From: Dictyostelium discoideum | Taxonomy: Eukaryota | NCBI GenBank assembly: GCA_000004695.1 | Contig: CM000151.3 | Coordinates: forward strand, 2,496,001 to 2,560,000 | Reading direction: 5' to 3' | DNA length: 64,000 bases | Part shown: positions 6,082 to 26,302 of the stretch, piece after piece | How the letters are laid out: every line of letters starts with the position of its first letter | Numbering within the stretch: position 1 is the first letter of the stretch | Made by a program: the position numbers and the translations under genes | The notes under the pieces: generated by a model | The model's input: only the letters and a program-made list of their open reading frames with translations | Database searches by the model: none | What the model was told of the DNA's origin: nothing

Positions 6082-6350
6082 ATCATTTTGTGTATTTTTT
6101 TTTTTTTTTGAGTACTCTATTTATCTATACTAAATTCATATTAAAAAATAGATAAAATTAAATCAGTTATTATTGATAAAAAAAATTTCAAAAAAAAAAA
6201 AAATAATTTTGAAAGTATTGAAAATGAATGATAATTTTTTAAAAAATAAAAAAAAAAAAATTCAAAAAACAGAATGATTACATTCATTTTTTTTTAATTT
6301 TATATCATTTTGTGTATTTTTGAGTGCTCTATTTATCTATACTTAATTTA
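6082..6350 (+). repeat. Two copies of a ~55-bp direct repeat (ATCATTTTGTGTATTTTT...GAGTRCTCTATTTATCTATACT) 215 bp apart, upstream of gene 6953
   Basis: Seen at 6082-6140 and 6298-6350. Confidence 0.5.
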
Positions 6351-6581
6351 TATAAATTATTAATAAATTTAAATTATTGTTTGAAAAAAAAAAAAAAAAT
6401 GAAAAATAAAATTTATTTAAATAAATTTTAATTAAAAATTTTTTTTTTTTTTTTTTTGGTGTCTGGTTTGAATGTTACCAATATTTTTTTTTTTTTTTTT
6501 TTTTTAGATTGTTTTTATTAATAATAACCGATTAAATTTTATTGTTATGGTTGGATTATTAATAATAATAAAAAAACCTTT

Positions 6582-6628
<47 letters not shown>

Positions 6629-6819
6629 AAAAAATAAATATCTTCTTTATCAAAAAAAAAAAAAGTAAATCTCATATCATGGAATATTTTTTTTTTTTTT
6701 GAAATTTTTAGCCTTTTTCAAAGATGGTTTTAACTGTTTTTTTATTAAAATTTTTTTTATTTTTTTTTTATTTTTTTTTTTTTTTTTTTTTTGAACCAAA
6801 TTAATTACTAGAATCCTTA

Positions 6820-6869
<50 letters not shown>

Positions 6870-6952
6870 TTTTATACCAAAAAAAAAAAAAAAAACCAAA
6901 AACTGGTATTATATATTTACACAACACAACACACTCACTCACAAATATTATA

Positions 6953-9333: not shown

Positions 9334-10025
9334 AATTTGTTGTTTGGTTTTATATTTTTACTTAAAGTATAAATTTAAAATATATTATATATTAAATATT
9401 TAATTTAATTTTTATTATTAATATTTTCTTTTTTTTTTATATTTAATATGATATATTTATATATAAATTTATTTTTATTATTAATGTAAACTATATAATA
9501 TATATATTAACATTGGTTTAGAGGTAATCCATCTTCAATTGAGATTGATTATGGAAAAAGGTTAATTTACAAAATAAAATTGAACAATTTGATGATTTAA
9601 AAAGGTAATTTGTGTATCACGAATAAACTATTTGGGAGGGCTAAGCTAGGAAAGAAGTAATTTAAGGCAAAATGAATTTTATTGCTTGTAGTTATTATTT
9701 TTATTTTTTTTTTATTTAATATCGATATATTAAGATTTATTTGTTATGTTGGAGCGTCAGCACATTAAACTCAAAATAATAACTTTATAAAGAATATACA
9801 AAATAAACTAATTTACAAATGAAAAATGTAAATGAATAAATATAATAAATGAAAATGAATTTAATAATATAAATAATTATTGTAACAAAGAACTACTGCA
9901 TACCTTACAAATTGTAATGAATCTCGTATTCTAACTTTATGGAATACTTATATTATTTTGGATATATCAATAAACGATGTGTGACCCTTGAATAATTAAT
10001 AATAATTTATATAATCTATAGATAT

Positions 10026-10335: not shown

Positions 10336-10872
10336 AGTTGACCCAACCACATTGATTACTATTCATTCAGTGTAAAGTGGATGCAAGGACATGCACAACT
10401 AATACTAACATACAGTAGTATCACACAATATAAAGTTTAACCAGATTCTTTAGATTAGCTACTCAAAAATGAGCACATATAATGTGTATGATTTTTATTA
10501 TTATTATTTATTTGATATTAATTAATTATTTACTTGATCTAGATGTAGATATTTTAGTAATAATAGGTGTTAATTCGGATTTTTTTTAAATTTGTATTTC
10601 TGCATGCAATATTATGTGTGAGTTTCAAAAAAAAAAAAAAAAATAAAAAAAAAAAAAAAATAAATAAAATTTTAAAAACCTTAATAATATAATGTTAATA
10701 TATAAAAAAATGAAATTATAGATCAAATAAATAAATGTTATTCGTAAATAGTAAAAACTCAAATAAATTCCTACCAATTTAATGTGGTTGACCTCATTCT
10801 TTTTTTAATTTTATTTAACCTTATTAGGTAAATTTCAGGGAAATCTAGATATTTAAATGGATAAAAAGAATG

Positions 10873-10951
10873 TGAGAGATGCGGGGTTCGAACCCGCGAC
10901 CCCGGAGGATAGAGCCTAAATCTATTGTCTTAACCACTCGACCAATCTCCC
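10873..10951 (-). tRNA. tRNA-Leu (anticodon UAG), long variable arm
   Basis: Reverse complement folds: acceptor GGGAGAT/ATCTCTC (one G-U), D-arm GTC-GAGTGGTTAA-GAC, anticodon arm ATAGA-TTTAGGC-TCTAT (TAG), 11-nt variable arm, T-arm GCGGG-TTCGAAC-CCCGC, discriminator A. T5 terminator just downstream on its own strand. Confidence 0.75.
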
Positions 10952-13979: not shown

Positions 13980-14741
13980 TTATTCTAAAGCGGTGGCAAT
14001 GTAATCAGCTCTTAATGAATAGACTTTGTTTTCATTCCAAGTGTAGAAAACACAATCAAAACCTTTGGTGGTAATGTTTCTTGGTTGAACACCAATACGA
14101 GTTTGATTGGTAGCATCAGTACAATCGATTTGATCAAAGTTGAGGGCAACCTTTGGGAGAGTAGCAAATTCAAATTGGAATTTAACTGGGACAACAACTT
14201 CACGTTTACCTGAACCGGTATTTAAGGCACAGTTATCGCCAGTGTAAATATCTGCACCAACTTGAGTGACTGAGCTTTGTACTGGTTGAGTGTAGAATTC
14301 ACATCTTAATGAAATGTGGTTATTCCAGGTTAATGGGTGGATAGCAATTGAACGAGCTCTAATTGGAGTATCAAAGAAATGATTAACAACAGTGTTACGA
14401 TCAGTTACACCAGTAATAGCAGCACCATTACGATATTCAGACCAGGTAACATTATCTAATGAATAACGGATTTTGTATGATGTAACCCATTGATCATGAT
14501 CACCACGACCTTGGAGAGCAACACACATAAAAGTACGTGGAACTTCACAACCAGCAACAATGTATTGGTTAGTATCTACGATTGATGAACACCAAGCTTC
14601 TGAACCATCAATAGTATTGGTACCTTTGTTTTTATAGTTTAAAGCAGCATTAAATTGAGTGTGGACACCATTGTAATTGGTTGAGGTTCTTAAATGACAT
14701 TGAGCATTTCCGAGAAGTGTAACTAAACCTTGGGTAGACAT
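13980..14741 (-). CDS. Discoidin I (253 aa; N-terminal discoidin/F5-8 type C domain plus C-terminal H-type lectin domain), intact, intronless
   Basis: Protein [29 protein letters not shown]...[10 protein letters not shown] recognised as discoidin I from memory. Complete ATG..TAA. Confidence 0.9.
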
Positions 14742-15081
14742 TTTAATTGTGTGTTGAATTTAAAAAAAGATAATTTGTATAAATGAAATTTTAATTTTTC
14801 AGTTTAATGATTTTAAAATGAAAATCATATTTTCTTTTTATAGTTTTTTTTTTTTTTTTTTTCCAATTAAAATTAAAGATTTAATTTATTTTTTTTTTAA
14901 TTTTTTAATTTTGTAAAATGACCAACTATTTTTATTGAAAAAATTAATGGGTATAAATTTTTTAAAATTTAATAAAAATCACCCCACTTTTCAGATTTTT
15001 CCTAGCTGTCGCAATTGGTGTGAAAAAAAAAATAAAATTAAAATGATTGTAAATTTTTTTTGTAATGGTTTGATTATTAAA

Positions 15082-15119
<38 letters not shown>

Positions 15120-15464
15120 TAAATTTGTAAATTTGGAATTTTTATGATTGAAAATAATTATATCTTTTTTTTTTTTATGATTTTTTTTTTTTTATTGATT
15201 TTTTTTATTTTTTTTTTATTGTTTTTTCAATGAAAAAAAAAGTTTTTATTCCTTAAAGATTGACGATAATTAATTTAGATTGGATATTATAAAAATACAG
15301 TTTTTTTTTTTTTTTTTTTATCATTTTTTATTTCAAATTTAATAATAATAGTTTAGAAATGGAAAAAATATAATAAACAAAATCTTGAATTTGGATTTTT
15401 TTTTTTTTTTTTTATTAAATTTGATTAAAAATTAAATTACAATTTTAATAATAAGATTAAAAAT

Positions 15465-16226
15465 TTATTCTAAAGCAGTAGCAATGTAATCAGCTCTTAA
15501 TGAATAGACTTTGTTAGCATTCCAAGTGTAGAAAACACAATCGAAACCTTTGGTGGTAATGTTTCTTGGTTGAACACCAATACGAGTTTGATTGGTAGCA
15601 TCAGTACAATCGATTTGATCAAAGTTGAGGGCAACCTTTGGGAGAGTAGCAAATTCAAATTGGAATTTAACTGGGACAACAACTTCACGTTTACCTGAAC
15701 CGGTATTTAAGGCACAGTTATCGCCAGTGTAAATATCTGCACCAACTTGAGTGACTGAGCTTTGTACTGGTTGAGTGTAGAATTCACATCTTAATGAAAT
15801 GTGGTTATTCCAGGTTAATGGGTGGATAGCAATTGAACGAGCTCTAATTGGAGTATCAAAGAAATGATTAACAACAGTGTTACGATCAGTTACACCAGTA
15901 ATAGCAGCACCATTACGATATTCAGACCAGGTAACATTATCTAATGAATAACGGATTTTGTATGATGTAACCCATTGATCATGATCACCACGACCTTGGA
16001 GAGCAACACACATAAAAGTACGTGGAACTTCACAACCAGCAACAATGTATTGGTTGGTATCTACGATTGATGAACACCAAGCTTCTGAACCATCAATAGT
16101 ATTGGTACCTTTGTTTTTATAGTTTAAAACAGCATTAAATTGAGTGTGGACATCATTGTAATTGGTTGAGGTTCTTAAATGACATTGAGCATTTGAGATA
16201 AGTTGAACTAAACCTTGGGTAGACAT
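15465..16226 (-). CDS. Discoidin I, second tandem copy (253 aa, 7 amino-acid differences from the first copy), intact
   Basis: Near-identical ORF 1485 bp upstream of the first. The 5' and 3' flanks are also conserved, so the duplication unit is ~1.5 kb. Confidence 0.9.
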
Positions 16227-16622: not shown

Positions 16623-16857
16623 AATCAATTTTTTTTTTTTTGTTTGGATTTTATTTTTATAATTTAATAATTATTTAATAAAATATTTTCTTTTTTATAA
16701 TTTAATTTTTATGTTTAGTCTTTTAATTTATATATTTCTTTTTTTATTTATCTTTTTAAAAGCTATAATTATTATTGAGGAATCTAACTAAAGAAAATTA
16801 TATTTTTTTAATTTTATATTAAAAAATTAAAAATATTTTAATACAGTTGATTAAAAT

Positions 16858-16896
<39 letters not shown>

Positions 16897-17136
16897 TGAT
16901 TAATTAGTTTATCTAAAATATCAATTTTTTTTTAATATTTTTGAATTTTAAAATTTAAATTTATTATTCTTTTTTCAATTTAAATAATCAAATTAAAAAT
17001 TTTAATTGTAAAATATTGTATTAATATTATTGGTTTTTTTTTTTTTTTTTTTTGATCAATGTTATTAAACCATGTTCATGAATAATAAAAATTAATTTCA
17101 ATAAATTCTTAAAACCGTTTGGATAATTATAAGTTC

Positions 17137-17190
17137 TCGCTAGTTCGATTCTGAATAAATGAAATAGGAATCGAACTAGCGACATATTCT
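17137..17190. promoter_or_regulatory. Perfect 15-bp inverted repeat (TCGCTAGTTCGATTC / GAATCGAACTAGCGA, 16-bp spacer). Each arm contains an external B-box-like AGTTCGATTC, located 20-70 bp downstream of tRNAi-Met copy A
   Basis: Only the tRNA-proximal arm is shared with copy B (20709-20725). The distal arm is an extra inverted copy. Confidence 0.5.
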
Positions 17191-17580
17191 ATATAATTTT
17201 AAAATTTAGCTTCTCTAGGTTTCGATCCTAGGACCTCGAGGTTATGGGCCTCGCACTCTACCCCTGAGTTAAGAAGCTGTCGATTCAAGCTAACGAATCT
17301 TATGATTTTGTTGTAATAAAGTTACTCTATAAAATTAATACATATTAAATATGCATATTACATTACTAATTTTAGTTGACACACATTTAAATAATATAAT
17401 AATAATAATAATAATAATACTGTCAACTCATTATAAATAATATAAATACTAAAGAATAATTTTATAAACAATATTGAATATTAAATATAAACTAATATTA
17501 AATAAAGATAACAAAGTATTATTCAATTATATAATTATTAATTATATATATTTATAAAGCTAACAAGCTTTATTACATTT
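17163..17580 (-). repeat. Arm A of an inverted segmental duplication (~420 bp): tRNAi-Met gene plus 302 bp upstream flank and ~45 bp downstream flank
   Basis: Reverse complement of 20315-20730 with only a few mismatches. Confidence 0.85.
17207..17278 (-). tRNA. Initiator tRNA-Met (anticodon CAU), copy A
   Basis: Identical to copy B, see 20614-20685. Confidence 0.85.
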
Positions 17581-17831
17581 GTGTAATGAACGTCGTATTC
17601 CAATTTCTATTAAATAACAGCAGCCTGGGAAAAACAAAAAACAACATATACAAACTAATCAGACAAGAAAAAAAAGCAACCAACAACGAACAAACAAAAA
17701 AATTCAAAAACATCATCTCCCTACAACTCGAAAGATTTAGCAAACACTGGAACTCACCACTACACACAGTAGCACTACCATCAAACCTCAACAAATATAT
17801 TACGTCACTAAACACACTCTACACCCCCCAA

Positions 17832-17884
<53 letters not shown>

Positions 17885-17992
17885 ATACAACCTTAAAAGG
17901 CACCTGTAATATCTAATAATAAAATTAATAAAATGAGTTATATCTCAAGAAGAAGCAACTAAAAATTGCGTTATTCCATTCAAAAAAAAAAA
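17581..17992 (+). mobile_element. 5'-truncated TRE5-type element (a divergent subfamily relative to the 19855 copy): ORF2 C-terminal fragment, oligo(A), C-module-like tail (AAAATGAGTTATATCTCAAGAAGAAGCAACTAAAAATTGCGTTATTCCATTC) and oligo(A). Truncated 5' end abuts the duplicated tRNA flank exactly at its breakpoint
   Basis: ORF 17586-17909 ends LERFSKHWNSPLHT, matching RLEKFSHNWKSKLMT of the 19855 fragment. The tail is ~75% identical to 11385-11440. Confidence 0.6.
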
Positions 17993-18600: not shown

Positions 18601-19283
18601 TTTAAAAAAAATCATAATTTTCTATTGCAATAACTCTTTTTTTTTTTTTTATATATTTTCAAAATTTTTTTTTTTTATTAATTATTATTTAAAAATAAAT
18701 ATAATATAAATTTTAAATATTATTTTAATATAAATATAATATATTTTATTAAATATTTACACATATTAATTTTTTTTTTTTTTATTTTTTTTTTTTATTT
18801 TTAGAAGTTTTAAAGATTTAATTAAATGTAAAGTATGTACTATAATGTGTTCACAATCAATATTTTATAATTGAGATCTTGGAGTTTGTATTTTTTGTAT
18901 TAAAGTAATGATAAAGGAAGAAGATGAACAATTAATTAAAAAAGAAGTTAAATCTATTTCAATTGAAGATGATCTTTATGATGAAGATAGTTATTGTTTG
19001 GATTGTGGGCAATTTAAAACACACTACTCCAGACATTGTAGTAGTATTCATCAACAAGTTAATGTTAATAAAGTTATAATGGATCACTGTAAACGTTATC
19101 CCAGAGAATCATTTAGAGGTAAAAAATCAAAAAAAAATGGAGATCAATTGAATATTCCATTTAAGTTATGGTTCAAGTCATTATAATTTTGGTAATACTG
19201 ATGACAAAACAAGTATCCAATGCTTCAATTGTATAGAATTTCATCCCATTCAATACCTTTAACTGATGCTGATGCTATAATTA

Positions 19284-19854: not shown

Positions 19855-20152
19855 TTGGAAAAAAAGACAGCCATTATGGAATCGATATGGTACAGAAGAA
19901 ACCAAATAAAATTCAACGATAACACTACAATAATAACAGAGAACCAAATAATTCATAAAATCAAAAAAGCGAGAGATGCCGAATGGGATAGAACAAGAAA
20001 GATAGTAGAAAAGCAACTACGTCAAGAACTAAGATGCACTGATAACCGAGAGTCAATCAATAGGACCGCATCAATAAAAAGAAGACTCGAAAAATTCAGT
20101 CACAACTGGAAATCGAAACTCATGACCATAAACATCCCGGAACACTTCAGAC
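19855..20152 (+). mobile_element. TRE5-A-like ORF2 3'-terminal fragment. The upstream boundary is uncertain and may extend to ~19700. Interrupted at 20152 by a nested insertion
   Basis: Translation ESIWYRRNQIKFND...AEWDRTRKIVEKQL...RLEKFSHNWKS is TRE5 ORF2-like. The track start is a TTG, not a real start codon. Confidence 0.55.
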
Positions 20153-20280
20153 TTTTTTTTTTTTTTTGAATTGGATAACGCAATTATTTGCTTCTCCTTG
20201 AGATGCTAGATCTCATTTTATTTTATTTTTTTTTTACAGGGTCCCTAAAAGAGGGGTTGGTTTACCTTTTTTTTTTTTTA
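20153..20280 (-). mobile_element. Nested, minus-oriented insertion of a minimal TRE5-A 3' end (oligo(A), ~105-bp C-module, oligo(A)) flanked by a 13-bp TSD GAACACTTCAGAC
   Basis: TSD copies at 20140-20152 and 20281-20293. Inserted segment is the reverse complement of 11318-11451. Confidence 0.65.
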
Positions 20281-20613
20281 GAACACTTCAGACAACATTT
20301 AGTTATTTGATATGAAATGTAATAAAGCTTGTTAGCTTTATAAATATATAATTAATAATTATATAATTGAATAATACTTTGTTATCTTTATTTAATATTA
20401 GTTTATATTTATAATATTCAATATTGTTTATAAAATTATTCTTTAGTATTTATATTATTTATAATGAGTTGACAGTATTATTATTATTATTATTATATTA
20501 TTTAAATGTGTGTCAACTATAATTAGTAATGTAATATGCATATTTAATATCTATTAATTTTATAGAGTAACTTTATTACAGAAAAATCATAAGATTCGTT
20601 AGCTTGAATCGAC

Positions 20614-20685
20614 AGCTTCTTAACTCAGGGGTAGAGTGCGAGGCCCATAACCTCGAGGTCCTAGGATCGAAACCTAGAGAAGCTA
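20614..20685 (+). tRNA. Initiator tRNA-Met (anticodon CAU), copy B
   Basis: AGCTTCTTAACTCAGGGGTAGAGTGCGAGGCCCATAACCTCGAGGTCCTAGGATCGAAACCTAGAGAAGCTA. Perfect 7-bp acceptor stem. Anticodon loop CCCATAA has C33. T-loop GATCGAAAC has A54 and A60. These are eukaryotic initiator-specific features. Similar to human tRNAi-Met (GGCCCATAACC, AGGTC, GGATCGAAACC blocks). Confidence 0.85.
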
Positions 20686-20714
20686 AATTTTAAAATTATA
20701 CAGAATATGTCGCT

Positions 20715-20725
20715 AGTTCGATTCC
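20715..20725 (+). promoter_or_regulatory. External B-box (AGTTCGATTCC) 30-40 bp downstream of tRNAi-Met copy B
   Basis: Matches the B-box consensus GGTTCGANTCC at the position established for Dictyostelium ex-B boxes. Confidence 0.55.
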
Positions 20726-21023
20726 TATTTTAAAGAATTAAATTCCATATTGATTTAATTTTAAAAAAATTAAAAGCCTACAGTTGATCAAACGGATACT
20801 AGATACAGAAAAACATATCCATCAATCTAACATCAACTACATTCAATCTATCTACTCTACACACTAATTCCTTCAATCCTTGGATTGGGAATAAGAATAG
20901 ATCTGAATAAACGATAAAGAAAAAAAAAAATAAAAATAAAAATCAAAAATATTTTTATATAAACACATAATTAAAAAAAAAAAATAATAAAAATAATCTA
21001 AAAAAAAAAAAAAAAAAAAAAAA

Positions 21024-21800
21024 ATGAATTTTTTCGATAAACTTAAAGGTGAACTCAACTTAGGCGAAGAAGAGTTAAATAAAAAAACTATTCAAATAAG
21101 GTTATTCTACCCACATACCTTGGAATTAAATAGTAATTCAACAAAATTAATAGATAATTTCATAGTTAATGGTACTCTTAACATTGTCAGAAGACAAAAA
21201 GGTATAACAGTATTTGGTAGAATACTAAAAGAAAAATTCACATTATTACACGAGTGTTACAGCACTTTCAAGTATGAAGATTTCCCACTGCAAAAATTCA
21301 TACTTTACACCCCAGGATATCACTATGTCCACTTTTACACATTTACAAAAAACATAATAAAAAAAATAAACAATCAAATGGTAAAAGAAAACTGGGGATT
21401 GGAGCCATTACTAATAGATGAATGCAACATAGTAATGCTACCAGATGTGATTAGATATTCATGCATTCTATTATTTAACAAAGAAGATGATATCTCAATC
21501 ATTAAAACAAACATTGATGCTATAAAAGGTAGTAAGCATCCAATAAGAGCCTTCATCTCTGAATATAACAATAAAGAAATAAGAGATGTTAGAAAAAAAA
21601 AAAACACAAGTAATAAAAATCAACAACCAACAACTACAAATACAACTAAACCAATACCATCAACTCCACCAACAACTAATGCATCAACAACCACACCAAT
21701 AACAACCACACCAATAACAACCACACAAACAACAACCACACCAACAACAATCACACATCAATTACCAACAAGCAATACAACAATCAACAACCTAAACAAA

Positions 21801-21835
<35 letters not shown>

Positions 21836-21905
21836 AAAACCTATCAATAAAATTACTACAAGCAATGGTACCAAGTTTCCAATTGCCAGTAGTATTAGAA
21901 AATAA
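21024..21905 (+). CDS. TRE3 ORF1 (293 aa, Thr-rich C-terminus)
   Basis: First ORF of the element. Confidence 0.7.
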
Positions 21906-24640
21906 TGGAACAATTAAAATTATTACTATGGAACTGCAGAGGTAATCAATCAACCAACGCTAAGAATAAAACAGAAGAAACGATAAAAAGAATTGGCACT
22001 CAATTAACACTCCTAACTGAAACTAATTTCAATGGATTCAACCACCACAAAACAATGTTCAACTTTGAAAGAATAGATCATGGTTCAGGTAAAGGAACTG
22101 GCATAGCAATAGAAAATAGAGATACAAGAAAAGGCCACATATCAATAAACTTCAAAGACGATGATGGTAGAATACTATCAATTAAATACAATTCCTTTAA
22201 TTCTATCAACATATTATTGATCAATGCTCCAGCGACTATATCTGAAAGAAACACCTTCATAATCAACTCAAAATCACTGTTTAAAAAATATAATTCAATC
22301 AACCATCAAATAATAGCAGGCGACTTCAATAACAACCACGATTGCAACAGCTTCTTCGGTACTGAATTACGTAAAATAATAGACCAAGACATGCTACTAG
22401 ATACTGGTATTGAAGAAAACACTCCAACATTTCCAAGATCAATGAAGAGACTAGATAGAATCTACTGTCATCCAACACTACTAAACCAAAATTCAAAACT
22501 GGTAGTCCACAACACAGTATTCAACAAATCAGATCACTTTCCCATCACAATCACAATACAAACCAACAGAGAAACAACAACAACAACAACAACAACCAAA
22601 CTAGAAAGACTCCCTTGGACATTATGTAAAGAAATTCTCAACAACAAACATATACATGATGGGTTATCAGAATTAATCAGTAAGAACAAAGATAAGATCA
22701 AATCAGTGGAGGAATGGACGAAATTTAAAAATAATGTCATCAGAGATTATTTAAAAAAAGAACAAAACAAAATAAAGAAAGAAAAGAACAAAAGAAAATA
22801 CGTAATCCACAAATTACTTGGAAATAGTGATATCATTCCAAAGATGAGAAAAGAACTCAATGAAGAAATAAGTAGAATATTAGAAGAAGAAAGAAAGGTA
22901 AAAGCATGGGATATAAAATTAAAACTCCACCTGCATCAAGAAACACCAAGCAAATACCTCACAAGTATCCTTAAATCCAGAGCCAAAGATAAATCAATAT
23001 TCCAAATAAAAGATAAAGATAATAAGACCATATCAGATAAAGAGAACATAGCAAAAAGATTTGTTGAATTCTATCAAGATCAATATGAAGAGAAAGAAGA
23101 TAACGAAGAAACCCACAAGAAGTTATTAGAAAAATGGGAAGTAGACGTTGATTTAATCAAGAAACTCGAGATAGACAGACCGATAAGAATACATGAAGTG
23201 ACCAAAGCAATCAAAACTTCAAGTATCCACAAATCTCCAGGTTTAGACGGTATCAATGCACTATTCTACAAGTACCACATCAACTCAATAGCAAGAATAT
23301 TGACTATAGCTTTCAACGACCTCCTCACAAATAAGAAAGAAATCCCCACAAAATTCAAAGAAGGAGTAATAACAACAATATTCAAAAAAGGAGATGAACT
23401 AAACATTTCAAATAGAAGACCAATCACCCTTCTCAATACAGATTACAAAATTTTAAGCAAAATTCTCAACAGTAGATTATTAGATATCACCAGTAAAATT
23501 ATCAACAAATTTCAAAACGGCTTTGTTCCAAACAGGTTCATCCAAGACAATATTCAGATCATGAAGGAAGTAATAGAAATAAGTAACAAAAGAAAGAACA
23601 ATACACTCATTACCTTTTACGATTTTAACAAAGCATTCGATTCAATCAGCCACAAGAGTATCACAAGAACATTAGAGCATATTGGTATCCCCCCAAAATT
23701 CACAGCGATCCTACTAAACCTACTCAAAGATACTAAAAACAAAATAAAGATCAACGACTTTTTAGTCAATGGAATAACAATCAGAACAGGAACAAAACAA
23801 GGAGACCCAATATCACCAACAATCTTTGCTCTAGTTTTAGAACCACTTCTAATAGATATCATCAATGATAATACAATCAAAGGCTTCACTCTACCAAATT
23901 CCAAATCATTAAAACTCACTGCATTTGCTGACGACATAGCAACCTTTACAAACTCCACAGAAGAACTAATGAAAATTAATACTAAAATCCAAAAGTACTG
24001 CTCAGCAACGTCATCATCGTTAAACAAAGAGAAAACAGTAATGATAGCAATAGGAGATAAACCACACGATCTACCATTCCAAGAGAGTACAGTCCCAGAA
24101 AGATATCTTGGCCTCAATTTCACCAAAACAGGTTTAAATTCAAAATACAACACTTTAATCCAAGAAATGAAAAACAATCTAATCAAATGGAAATCACAAG
24201 CAATAACGATGAAGGCAAAGATGACAATTCTCAAAACATACGTTCTATCCAAATTAACATACCATCAATACATGGATAATCTAAATGAAGAACAAATTGA
24301 GGAAATCAATAACATGACCAGATGGTTCTTATTCTCCTCAGTTAAGAATACATATACAGAAGAGAGAAAATACAAAACTATGATGAAAATAGACAGAGCA
24401 TATGCAGATTGGAAAGAAGGAGGCATAAAATTATGGGATATAGAACTAAGACATATAGCATTCAAAATCTGGTACATGAACAGGCTACTCCATAACAACT
24501 ACAACAACAACAACAATACCTTACAAGAATGGTACATGGAGCAATTAAGTAGAAAAAAGCCCACACTTCAACCCTCAACGATATGTGCAGACACTGGGGT
24601 GTATTCAGAGTCAAATTTTACCAAAACCATCCAAAGATAA
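21905..24640 (+). CDS. TRE3 ORF2: apurinic/apyrimidinic-type endonuclease plus reverse transcriptase (911 aa to the first stop)
   Basis: EEP/APE-like N-terminus, RT motifs 1-7 including FADD at the YXDD position. Confidence 0.8.
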   Translation: MEQLKLLLWNCRGNQSTNAKNKTEETIKRIGTQLTLLTETNFNGFNHHKTMFNFERIDHGSGKGTGIAIENRDTRKGHISINFKDDDGRILSIKYNSFNSINILLINAPATISERNTFIINSKSLFKKYNSINHQIIAGDFNNNHDCNSFFGTELRKIIDQDMLLDTGIEENTPTFPRSMKRLDRIYCHPTLLNQNSKLVVHNTVFNKSDHFPITITIQTNRETTTTTTTTKLERLPWTLCKEILNNKHIHDGLSELISKNKDKIKSVEEWTKFKNNVIRDYLKKEQNKIKKEKNKRKYVIHKLLGNSDIIPKMRKELNEEISRILEEERKVKAWDIKLKLHLHQETPSKYLTSILKSRAKDKSIFQIKDKDNKTISDKENIAKRFVEFYQDQYEEKEDNEETHKKLLEKWEVDVDLIKKLEIDRPIRIHEVTKAIKTSSIHKSPGLDGINALFYKYHINSIARILTIAFNDLLTNKKEIPTKFKEGVITTIFKKGDELNISNRRPITLLNTDYKILSKILNSRLLDITSKIINKFQNGFVPNRFIQDNIQIMKEVIEISNKRKNNTLITFYDFNKAFDSISHKSITRTLEHIGIPPKFTAILLNLLKDTKNKIKINDFLVNGITIRTGTKQGDPISPTIFALVLEPLLIDIINDNTIKGFTLPNSKSLKLTAFADDIATFTNSTEELMKINTKIQKYCSATSSSLNKEKTVMIAIGDKPHDLPFQESTVPERYLGLNFTKTGLNSKYNTLIQEMKNNLIKWKSQAITMKAKMTILKTYVLSKLTYHQYMDNLNEEQIEEINNMTRWFLFSSVKNTYTEERKYKTMMKIDRAYADWKEGGIKLWDIELRHIAFKIWYMNRLLHNNYNNNNNTLQEWYMEQLSRKKPTLQPSTICADTGVYSESNFTKTIQR

Positions 24641-25350
24641 ATGAACTTCCAGACTGTATAAGAAACGACAATGATGAACCACTAAAACTGAAAGAAATTT
24701 ACGAACTCATGATCAAAGACAGACACCCAACACCAAGAAGAACAGAATGGCAGAAGTTATGGGCGGTGAGATACAACACAGCAATACCCAAAGTATTCAT
24801 AAACATCAACAGCATTTCTCACCAAAAAGGTAGAAACACCCTCTTCAGATTCTTCTCAAGATCACTTCCAGGTATCAACCACGAAAGAGACACCAGATGC
24901 AAGATCTGTGGCCACCTATTCAGAGACCCTTATTCTCACCTCTTCACTCTATGCCAAGATATCCTAGATATTGAAAAAACCATCATATCAACAGTTAACA
25001 AATTATCATTCATCAAAATCCAAAGATGGTCAATGGATACCTTAGACATATCAAAATACAACAGAACTGAGAGAATCTTCCCCAATCTCATAGGAATAAT
25101 AGCACACCAATTATGGAAGATAATCTGTCACAAATTGTTCAACACTGATGAAAGCAAACCAGAGCCAAAATTCGAGCAAAAGGTCATAGAAACAGAATTA
25201 CTAAATCTCATCGAAACTGAAAAATTCATCACACTAAAGAAAATCAAACACGACGAAGCAATACTAAAAAACACCAATCAAGATCTTCACAAATACAAAT
25301 TCAACAAAGCCTGGCAAACCCCAGCAGCTCCGAACCCTCTTCCAATTTAA
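24583..25350 (+). CDS. TRE3 ORF2 C-terminal Cys/His (zinc-finger-like) domain in a different frame from 21905-24640. Apparent frameshift within 24583-24640, so this copy may be defective or the shift is programmed or a sequencing error
   Basis: CKICGH...H...C motif typical of non-LTR ORF2 tails. Overlaps the end of the RT frame. Confidence 0.5.
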   Translation: MCRHWGVFRVKFYQNHPKINELPDCIRNDNDEPLKLKEIYELMIKDRHPTPRRTEWQKLWAVRYNTAIPKVFININSISHQKGRNTLFRFFSRSLPGINHERDTRCKICGHLFRDPYSHLFTLCQDILDIEKTIISTVNKLSFIKIQRWSMDTLDISKYNRTERIFPNLIGIIAHQLWKIICHKLFNTDESKPEPKFEQKVIETELLNLIETEKFITLKKIKHDEAILKNTNQDLHKYKFNKAWQTPAAPNPLPI

Positions 25351-25355
25351 GTAGT

Positions 25356-25430
<75 letters not shown>

Positions 25431-26302
25431 GTTTAAAAAATTTAATACAATTGAATAATAAAAATAAAACCGTTTAACAAACACCGCCGAAAAGACACAA
25501 GGACATTCCTTGAAGGTCTGATCACAGGTAAAAAAAAAAAAAAAAAAATATTGATTTAATTTTAAAACTGAAAAAAAAAATAACAATAAAAATAATAGTA
25601 TCTTTTTTTCAAAATGAATTTGAGGGATGTATCCTTAGCTCTTATTGTCTCTTCTCTTCTTTTGGATTTATTGATTGCCTAGATTCTTGGTCTTTGAATT
25701 CTATGTCTAATAGAGCTACAGAATTTGAGAAATTCGGTATGTGTAGGATTATAATCCTATAAATTACTGAATATTTGATTTAATAGTTAAAAAGTGATTA
25801 ATCAATATTAAAAAAAAAAAAATTATAATAAATGAAACATTTGAACATGTTACAATTGTTCCACCTTTTTTTCAAACTATTTAACAAAATTTACTTTTTT
25901 AATTTAATAAAATTGGTTTTGTTTATATTAAAAATAATTTTCCATCGATTTTTATTAAAAAAAAAAAAAAAAAAGAAAATCAAATTTTAAAACTAAAAAA
26001 AAAATATTATTTTTTAATTAAAATTTATTTTTAATATTGGTAAAGTCACCAGGGACTTGTTTTAAAATAATTAAAAATTTAGGATAATTTAAATAATAAT
26101 ATTTTAAAATTTTAATTTTAATATATTAATTTTTTTTTTTTAAAATTTTCTCTAGATATTTTTTTTTTTTTTTTTTTTTTTGATATTTTGTGATATTTTT
26201 AGATATTTTAGAATTTTTTTTTTGAAAAAAAAAAAAAAAAAAAAAACTATTTAAATCACACCCAAATTTTAATTATTTTTATTTTTATACATATTTTAAA
26301 AA

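Follow-up and report, generated by a model that had tools for sequence, protein, structure and literature searches.

A private inverted copy of an external B box beside an initiator tRNA gene of Dictyostelium discoideum AX4, probably a short templated insertion

We examined a short palindrome that lies downstream of one of two initiator tRNA genes in Dictyostelium discoideum, and conclude that its tRNA-distal arm is probably a short, templated inverted insertion that arose in the AX4 lineage later than the duplication of the tRNA gene and that is itself probably neutral. According to this reading, 15 nt of the external B box (ex-B) of the tRNA gene would have been re-synthesised as their reverse complement 16 nt further downstream, in place of about 55 nt of AT-rich flank that other strains carry. 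The event would have followed both the duplication of the tRNA gene from position B to position A and a G-to-A change that marks the AX4 ex-B, and its outcome would be a 46-bp, hairpin-capable palindrome with a second, oppositely oriented B-box consensus.

The palindrome and the external B box

The window (the whole stretch of DNA analysed, 64 kb) is extremely AT-rich, with 10-36% GC per kb. It holds two adjacent discoidin I genes, whose products mark it as D. discoideum of AX4 type, and two identical tRNA-Met(CAT) genes, copies A and B, arranged head to head (ARAGORN, Rfam). The features referred to below are as follows, in window coordinates.

13980-14741: dscD, product identical to AX4 DscD
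15465-16226: dscC, product identical to AX4 DscC
16780-16788, minus strand: 9-nt indel GTTAGATTC, AX4 type only, one mismatch from the B-box core
17137-17151, plus strand: distal arm, an inverted 15-nt ex-B copy, AX4-type lineage only
17152-17167, no strand: spacer, 16 nt, AT-rich and itself non-palindromic
17162-17580, minus strand: homology tract of copy A, about 420 bp, 97-98% identical to 20315-20730
17168-17182, minus strand: proximal arm, the ex-B of tRNAi-Met copy A, reading TCGCTAGTTCGATTC in tRNA sense
17201-17204, minus strand: run of four T directly after tRNA A, by sequence the presumed Pol III terminator
17207-17278, minus strand: tRNAi-Met copy A (ARAGORN; Rfam tRNA, 57.7 bits), the derived duplicate
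20315-20730, plus strand: homology tract of copy B, holding tRNAi-Met B (20614-20685) and its ex-B (20710-20724)
20614-20685, plus strand: tRNAi-Met copy B (ARAGORN, Rfam), ancestral
20748-20766 and 25549-25567: 19-bp target-site duplication TATTGATTTAATTTTAAAA of the TRE3 element
20767-25548, plus strand: full-length TRE3-type non-LTR retrotransposon with APE, RT and poly(A) tail
21024-21905: TRE3 ORF1
21905-24640: TRE3 ORF2, APE and RT (Pfam RVT_1, 2.3e-36; Exo_endo_phos, 2.5e-9)
24583-25350: further ORF of TRE3

A first-pass annotation had described a perfect 15-bp palindrome with a 16-bp spacer, and the window sequence agrees: the distal arm reads TCGCTAGTTCGATTC on the plus strand (17137-17151), the spacer TGAATAAATGAAATAG, and the proximal arm GAATCGAACTAGCGA (17168-17182), the last being the exact reverse complement of the first at 15 of 15 positions. 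The end of the structure had been placed at 17190, which is 8 bp too far; the full extent is 17137-17182, or 46 bp centred on 17159.5. Both arms stop sharply, with C at 17136 and again at 17183, so that neither can be extended. The tRNA-proximal 6 nt of the spacer (17162-17167, CTATTT in tRNA sense) are the last bases common to copy B.

The palindrome is the sole inverted repeat of its class in the window, the class searched being perfect repeats whose arms are 11 bp or longer, with 5 or more G/C, and whose spacer does not exceed 50 nt. First-order Markov simulations yielded no such repeat (0/60), and at window base composition the probability of this 15-mer falling within 100 nt is about 9e-9. 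The same palindrome, together with all three copies of the 15-mer, is present in a second, independent assembly (L001, GCA_054883475.1) that is 99.5% identical, with 20 mismatches and 10 gap openings relative to the window over 20 kb; therefore, it is not an assembly artefact. A chance match or an artefact, to which the AT-rich, repeat-rich surroundings lend their only support, is already refuted by these figures and retains practically no probability. As single-stranded DNA the palindrome folds into a hairpin with a dG of -15.5 kcal/mol (z = -6.5 against shuffles), and hairpin formation in single-stranded DNA is favourable. As to the cruciform potential raised in the first-pass annotation, arms of 15 bp around a loop of 16 nt should extrude only inefficiently from duplex DNA.

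Both tRNA copies read AGCTTC...GGATCGAAACC...GAAGCTA, with a CAT anticodon, A1:U72 and the T-loop ATCGAAA (A54, A60). We take A1:U72, A54 and A60 to be hallmarks of initiator tRNA, and copies A and B hence to be tRNAi-Met. Their internal B box, GATCGAAAC, departs at two positions from the consensus GTTCRAnYC, a sub-consensus form proper to the initiator. The run of four T at 17201-17204 presumably serves as terminator, as general knowledge of Pol III would have it, and since it comes ahead of the ex-B and the palindrome, both would lie outside the primary transcript.

External B boxes were reportedly described by Hofmann et al. in 1991 and by Siol et al. in 2006. In D. discoideum, 66% of the tRNA genes have one about 41 bp downstream, and the Dictyostelium B-box consensus is GTTCRAnYC (PMC3159450). 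The proximal arm occupies +25 to +39 from the 3' end of tRNA A, its core GTTCGATTC lies at +31 to +39, and adding the G that precedes the arm completes the match to the full consensus GTCnnnnGTTCRAnYC. The same core, which conforms to GTTCRAnYC, is present in both arms and in the copy B 15-mer, and the palindrome does create two B-box sites in opposite orientation, as had been proposed, TFIIIC binding at them being putative. The further proposal that copy B has only the proximal arm was confirmed: its sense 15-mer stands alone at 20710-20724 with the core at +31, and the inverted arm is absent.

The orthologous locus was taken from six further assemblies by means of discoidin-cluster proteins and the neighbouring GH25-like gene, which gave 12 tRNAi-Met copies for comparison (window, L001, L004, L005, L006, L010 and L011). 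The core GTTCGATTC is invariant at +30 to +33 in 12/12 copies from these 7 assemblies. The flanks around it differ by 6-14% between lineages while the core is unchanged, which argues that the ex-B is functional at the tRNAi-Met gene; such strict conservation beside a sub-consensus internal B box supports a real role for the ex-B. The proximal arm is an ordinary conserved ex-B of a Dictyostelium tRNA gene and a presumed TFIIIC site. Elsewhere in the window, a tRNA-Glu gene (2148-2221) and a tRNA-Leu gene (10872-10951), as well as the orthologous tRNA-Leu genes, show none over the 160 nt considered, which agrees with published work, where only about two thirds of genes carry an ex-B.

Distribution of the distal arm and age of the duplication

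The distal arm lies at +56 to +70 from the 3' end of tRNA A with its core pointing away from the tRNA gene, and it lacks the leading G of the GTC signature (CTC). Comparison with the orthologous region, which the first-pass annotation had suggested as a check, placed the arm in the window and L001 only among the 7 assemblies with the tRNAi-Met locus. It is absent from the copy A flanks of L004, L005 and L006 and also from D. citrinum. The A flanks of L004 and L006 align to AX4 on both sides of the arm, that of L005 on the proximal side only. The blocks shared by L004, L006 and AX4 are CTATTTyATTTwTT ... ACTTAwAATT ... ATCyAAAC ... TTTTAAkAATTwATTGAAA, and in place of the arm L004 and L006 carry 55-90 nt of unrelated AT-rich sequence between those blocks. 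A search for vestiges of an inverted arm, by composition-weighted local alignment against shuffles, gave P = 0.63 for L004 copy A, 0.17 for L005 copy A and 0.69 for L006 copy A; the sole nominal match was L006 copy B (P = 0.02), which fails correction for 9 tests. Where AX4 reads GAATCGAACTAGCGAGAAC, L005 reads GATTTATGCGATAAC at an equal offset, a resemblance that is not significant and could represent a decayed arm or a proto-arm.

Two features of the sequence bear on how the arms are related. All three AX4 15-mers contain TCGCTAG, whereas L004, L005 and L006 have TCGCTGG in both of their copies; since the G-to-A variant is in all three, the present sequence of the arm would have been templated after an AX4-specific substitution. 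The inverted 15/15 identity also extends over 6 nt (TCGCTA) that the B-box core does not include. These are specific to the locus, for a tRNA-Val gene in L003 has other nucleotides flanking its ex-B. That the arms share them argues that they are related by copying and not by convergence on a consensus. A copy from elsewhere was considered and rejected, as the junction sequences are unique among all fetched sequences.

The first-pass annotation had named a conserved ex-B architecture as the finding that would speak against a rearrangement scar. No inverted ex-B was found at the other 10 tRNAi-Met copies or at other tRNA genes in the fetched loci, and among the loci compared the palindrome is not such an architecture; the two inverted matches in L007 come from a convergent pair of tRNA-Leu genes and are their internal B boxes. 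Searches for further examples were negative within their scope. An exact-pattern scan with the 3' half of tRNAi-Met had 0 matches in JGI metagenomes and 0 in GTDB genomes; TRE3 ORF1, used as a route to other tRNA genes, led to no record; the discoidin loci of D. dimigraforme, D. firmibasis and one per D. citrinum assembly (L002, L003, L007-L009) are non-orthologous and have no tRNAi-Met nearby; and homolog searches with the GH25-like gene, made for more strains, returned only D. citrinum and more distant species.

The homology between A and B extends as far as 17162 and 20730, stopping 6 nt after the ex-B and about 2 bp from the centre of the palindrome. Both tRNAi-Met copies are also found in L004, L005 and L006 (two D. 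discoideum assemblies and one D. cf. discoideum), and in all lineages bearing the pair A equals B through the ex-B and CTATTT, then diverges at the same nucleotide into a B-type flank (TAAAG...) or an A-type flank (yAwTT...). Because the arm-less lineages have this boundary in common, the duplication and its boundary are older than the palindrome. In D. citrinum (L010, L011), where the rhaM / GH25-like / discoidin synteny is preserved, there is one tRNAi-Met only, in the position and orientation of copy B and with a related downstream flank (...ATTAAAG / ...TATAAAAG). Therefore, copy B is ancestral and copy A a duplicate derived from it.

The pair has been homogenised since. In AX4 the tract over which A matches B spans -310 to +45 and is 98% identical, against about -50 to +45 in L006 and about -35 to +45 in L005 (in total about 420 bp in AX4 and about 150-170 bp in L005 and L006), and the longer AX4 tract implies that AX4 had its own, later homogenisation. 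The 3' trailers are the same in A and B within a strain and different between strains, and L005 has a compensatory T-stem change in both tRNA copies. The head-to-head pair is under concerted evolution, and the strains document it together with a variable length of conversion tract at an initiator-tRNA pair. The AX4-specific upstream tract is of low complexity and has no recognisable ortholog in the other strains. We also considered whether A/B homology resumes after an indel of about 47 bp in A, and found no support for it: the apparent similarity is low-complexity, and the strains keep an A-type and a B-type flank apart, each conserved in its own right, with D. citrinum having the B type too.

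The AX4, L004 plus L006 and L005 lineages form nearly a trichotomy, with 6-8.5% pairwise divergence, and D. citrinum, having no copy A, is no true outgroup for the A flank. Polarity of the arm therefore rests on parsimony and on the shared derived variant; the alternative polarity, loss of the arm in two lineages, is less likely.

Several other differences among the strains were noted at this locus. L004 (GCA_054859385.1) carries tRNAi-Met A, dscC and dscD on a block of about 10 kb whose orientation is opposite to that in AX4, L006 and D. citrinum. The block is edged by 640-bp inverted repeats, 97.7% identical, at 6281-6917 and 16984-17627, and the inversion places the tRNAi-Met genes in direct orientation 8.7 kb apart. 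In D. citrinum the ex-B lies between short inverted repeats TAATGAGA...TCTCATTA in L010 (8259-8284) and within an imperfect inverted repeat ATAAAGA...TCTTTTAT in L011 (5350-5385), the stem sequence of which is unlike that of L010. Over the region of window 13980-16226, assemblies labelled D. discoideum are 6-7% from AX4 in alignable sequence, and DscC differs at 12/253 residues between them and AX4; the divergence of the 'cf. discoideum' assembly, at 8.5%, is barely above this. Either cryptic lineages or an unusual divergence of this locus may account for it.

The surroundings of the pair are also rich in retroelements. The TRE3-type element is inserted 81 nt downstream of tRNAi-Met B, and TRE3 is known to prefer integration about 100 bp downstream of tRNA genes (PMC5006619). 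Its insertion was considered as the cause of the arm-less copy B and rejected: excision at the 19-bp target-site duplication leaves a flank that is still without the arm, and the element went in 18 nt past the end of homology. Retrotransposon debris lies between the tRNA genes (17586-17990 and 19855-20300), in which the C-terminal fragment of an ORF leads into poly(A) and a tail resembling the C-module; it includes a nested 128-nt retro-fragment (20153-20280) with a 13-nt target-site duplication GAACACTTCAGAC at 20140-20152 and 20281-20293. Related pieces of debris occur in L004, L005 and D. citrinum.

Origin of the distal arm

The most likely route to the distal arm would be a short-range template switch, in which either the nascent strand snaps back on itself during replication or a break is repaired by end joining with a templated insertion. 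Sharp ends and an accompanying deletion are the expected signature of such events in the quasipalindrome and template-switch literature, and snap-back templated insertions at repaired breaks, of the polymerase-theta type, are a known class. Here the arm ends are sharp with no similarity beyond them, the junctions are unique and a deletion accompanies the insert, all of which fit the template-switch class of mutation. A further observation counts against a recent insertion, namely that the limits of the arm coincide nearly exactly with the 16-nt span of the B-box consensus, which would fit selection for a second TFIIIC site too.

The first-pass annotation had read the extra arm as marking the distal breakpoint of the duplication, and as the likely footprint left by the hairpin or fold-back event that created the inverted tRNAi-Met pair. 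The arm is at copy A only, and the outer end of A/B homology does lie about 2 bp from the palindrome centre, so that breakpoint and centre coincide in this respect. However, L004, L005 and L006 share the pair and its outer boundary without having the arm, which already contradicts such an origin, and the arm bears the AX4-specific substitution. Moreover, the symmetry centre of the A/B pair is near 18946, 1.8 kb from the palindrome centre at 17159.5, whereas the centre of a fold-back would be expected between the copies. The closeness of boundary and centre is a matter of geometry: the duplicated unit has the ex-B as its final element, and this was copied across a short spacer. We therefore hold it very improbable that the arm was left by the duplication. 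What stands of the earlier interpretation is a mutational scar of the fold-back or template-switch kind, adjacent to an older boundary and unrelated to the origin of the duplication, and this corrects the inference that a palindrome at the edge of a duplication is the scar of that duplication.

Alternatively, the arm could be a by-product of the later, AX4-specific re-copying of about 420 bp between A and B, in which synthesis would overrun the homology past the ex-B, snap back for 15 nt and join the A flank with a deletion. The AX4 tract, longer than those of L005 and L006, attests a copying event of its own; the arm lies immediately past the end of that tract, with a deletion relative to L004 and L006; and the AX4 variant is common to all three 15-mers. 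The extra homology in AX4 is nevertheless upstream, where the junction would then be expected, while the boundary on the ex-B side is old and shared. The upstream tract, being of low complexity and without an ortholog, gives no direction of copying, and A and B differ by about 1-2%, while 15-nt arms are too short to date. Such a by-product seems unlikely, albeit the least unlikely of the alternatives to an independent insertion. Less likely again is an ancient dyad, with opposed TFIIIC sites present from the origin of copy A, retained in AX4 through selection or conversion within the palindrome, and lost elsewhere. The match between the arm limits and the functional B-box span TCnnnnGTTCRAnYC would agree with it, as would the GA.T...GCGA of L005 at the same offset, and perfect retention by chance is estimated at about 0.35 (for 15-nt arms and about 3-4% divergence per lineage). 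It would require at least two independent losses as well as co-conversion of the G-to-A change into both arms and copy B, and it finds no significant vestige in the other lineages, no inverted ex-B at the other 10 tRNAi-Met copies or other fetched tRNA genes, and no arm in D. citrinum; we consider it improbable.

Possible function and relation to known systems

The inserted distal arm is probably selectively neutral, its lack of conservation arguing for neutrality. Isolated B boxes are poor but real targets of TRE5-A, used at less than 1% of the tRNA-gene frequency (PMC5391098), and by analogy weak TFIIIC binding at the distal arm is conceivable as a prediction.

A second B-box-like insertion lies in the same flank. 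The 9-nt indel GTTAGATTC, found in L001 at 9442-9452, is in the orientation of tRNA A about 385 nt beyond the ex-B (about +413), and when its flanks are counted in (TCTTTAGTTAGATTCCT), 14/17 positions agree with the ex-B. L004 and L006 lack exactly those 9 nt with their flanks perfect (ATTTTCTTTA|CTCAATAATAATTATAGC). By composition, the probability of a random 9-nt indel matching the B-box core so well is about 1e-4; the pre-existing flanks (TCTTTA|CT) already resembled those of the ex-B. That one flank holds two AX4-private B-box copies suggests that templated copying in the neighbourhood of the ex-B may be a recurrent event. It is an improbable further step, which we offer as speculation, that the ex-B or the presumed TFIIIC complex on it is a local template-switch hotspot that pastes B boxes nearby. 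If it were true, the new opposed site could also bind TFIIIC, and if it were general as well, it would provide a mechanism for unexplained solo B boxes (22 on the Dictyostelium rDNA palindrome, and ETC-like sites). A recurrent process behind the two AX4-only copies would in any case hint at the origin of solitary B boxes.

Compared with other Dictyostelium ex-B, the proximal arm and the copy B 15-mer are alike in matching the consensus in tRNA sense about 30 nt downstream, past the T-run, and in being conserved across strains and in D. citrinum. The distal arm differs in being inverted, at +56 and in one lineage only. The proximal ex-B carries the GTC signature, which according to the literature is typical of internal and not of external B boxes (PMC3159450). 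The literature on Dictyostelium ex-B that we consulted does not describe a second ex-B in opposed orientation. Solo B boxes are known from the yeast ETC sites and the Dictyostelium rDNA palindrome (PMC3159450, PMC5391098). The distal arm resembles them as an isolated consensus without its own A box or tRNA context, but it has a bona fide ex-B only 16 nt away and is not conserved, and its occupancy is putative.

With fold-back inverted duplications and palindromic amplification, the palindrome shares an inverted repeat and a short asymmetric spacer in miniature (15-bp arms), but here the large A/B pair is older and is not centred on the palindrome. The closest likeness is to template-switch or quasipalindrome mutations, which are said to have been described by Ripley in 1982, by Dutra and Lovett in 2006 and by Loytynoja and Goldman in 2017. 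As in those, the distal arm is an exact reverse complement a few nucleotides away, has sharp ends, replaces sequence and is absent in sister lineages. It differs in that the switch itself is deduced, that the ancestral state of the replaced segment is known from 6-7% diverged lineages only, and that no pre-existing quasi-palindrome is demonstrable. The distal arm is best placed among these as a private structural variant with no function implied, in which a mutation of a known class has added a reversed copy of a known promoter-like element, the ex-B.
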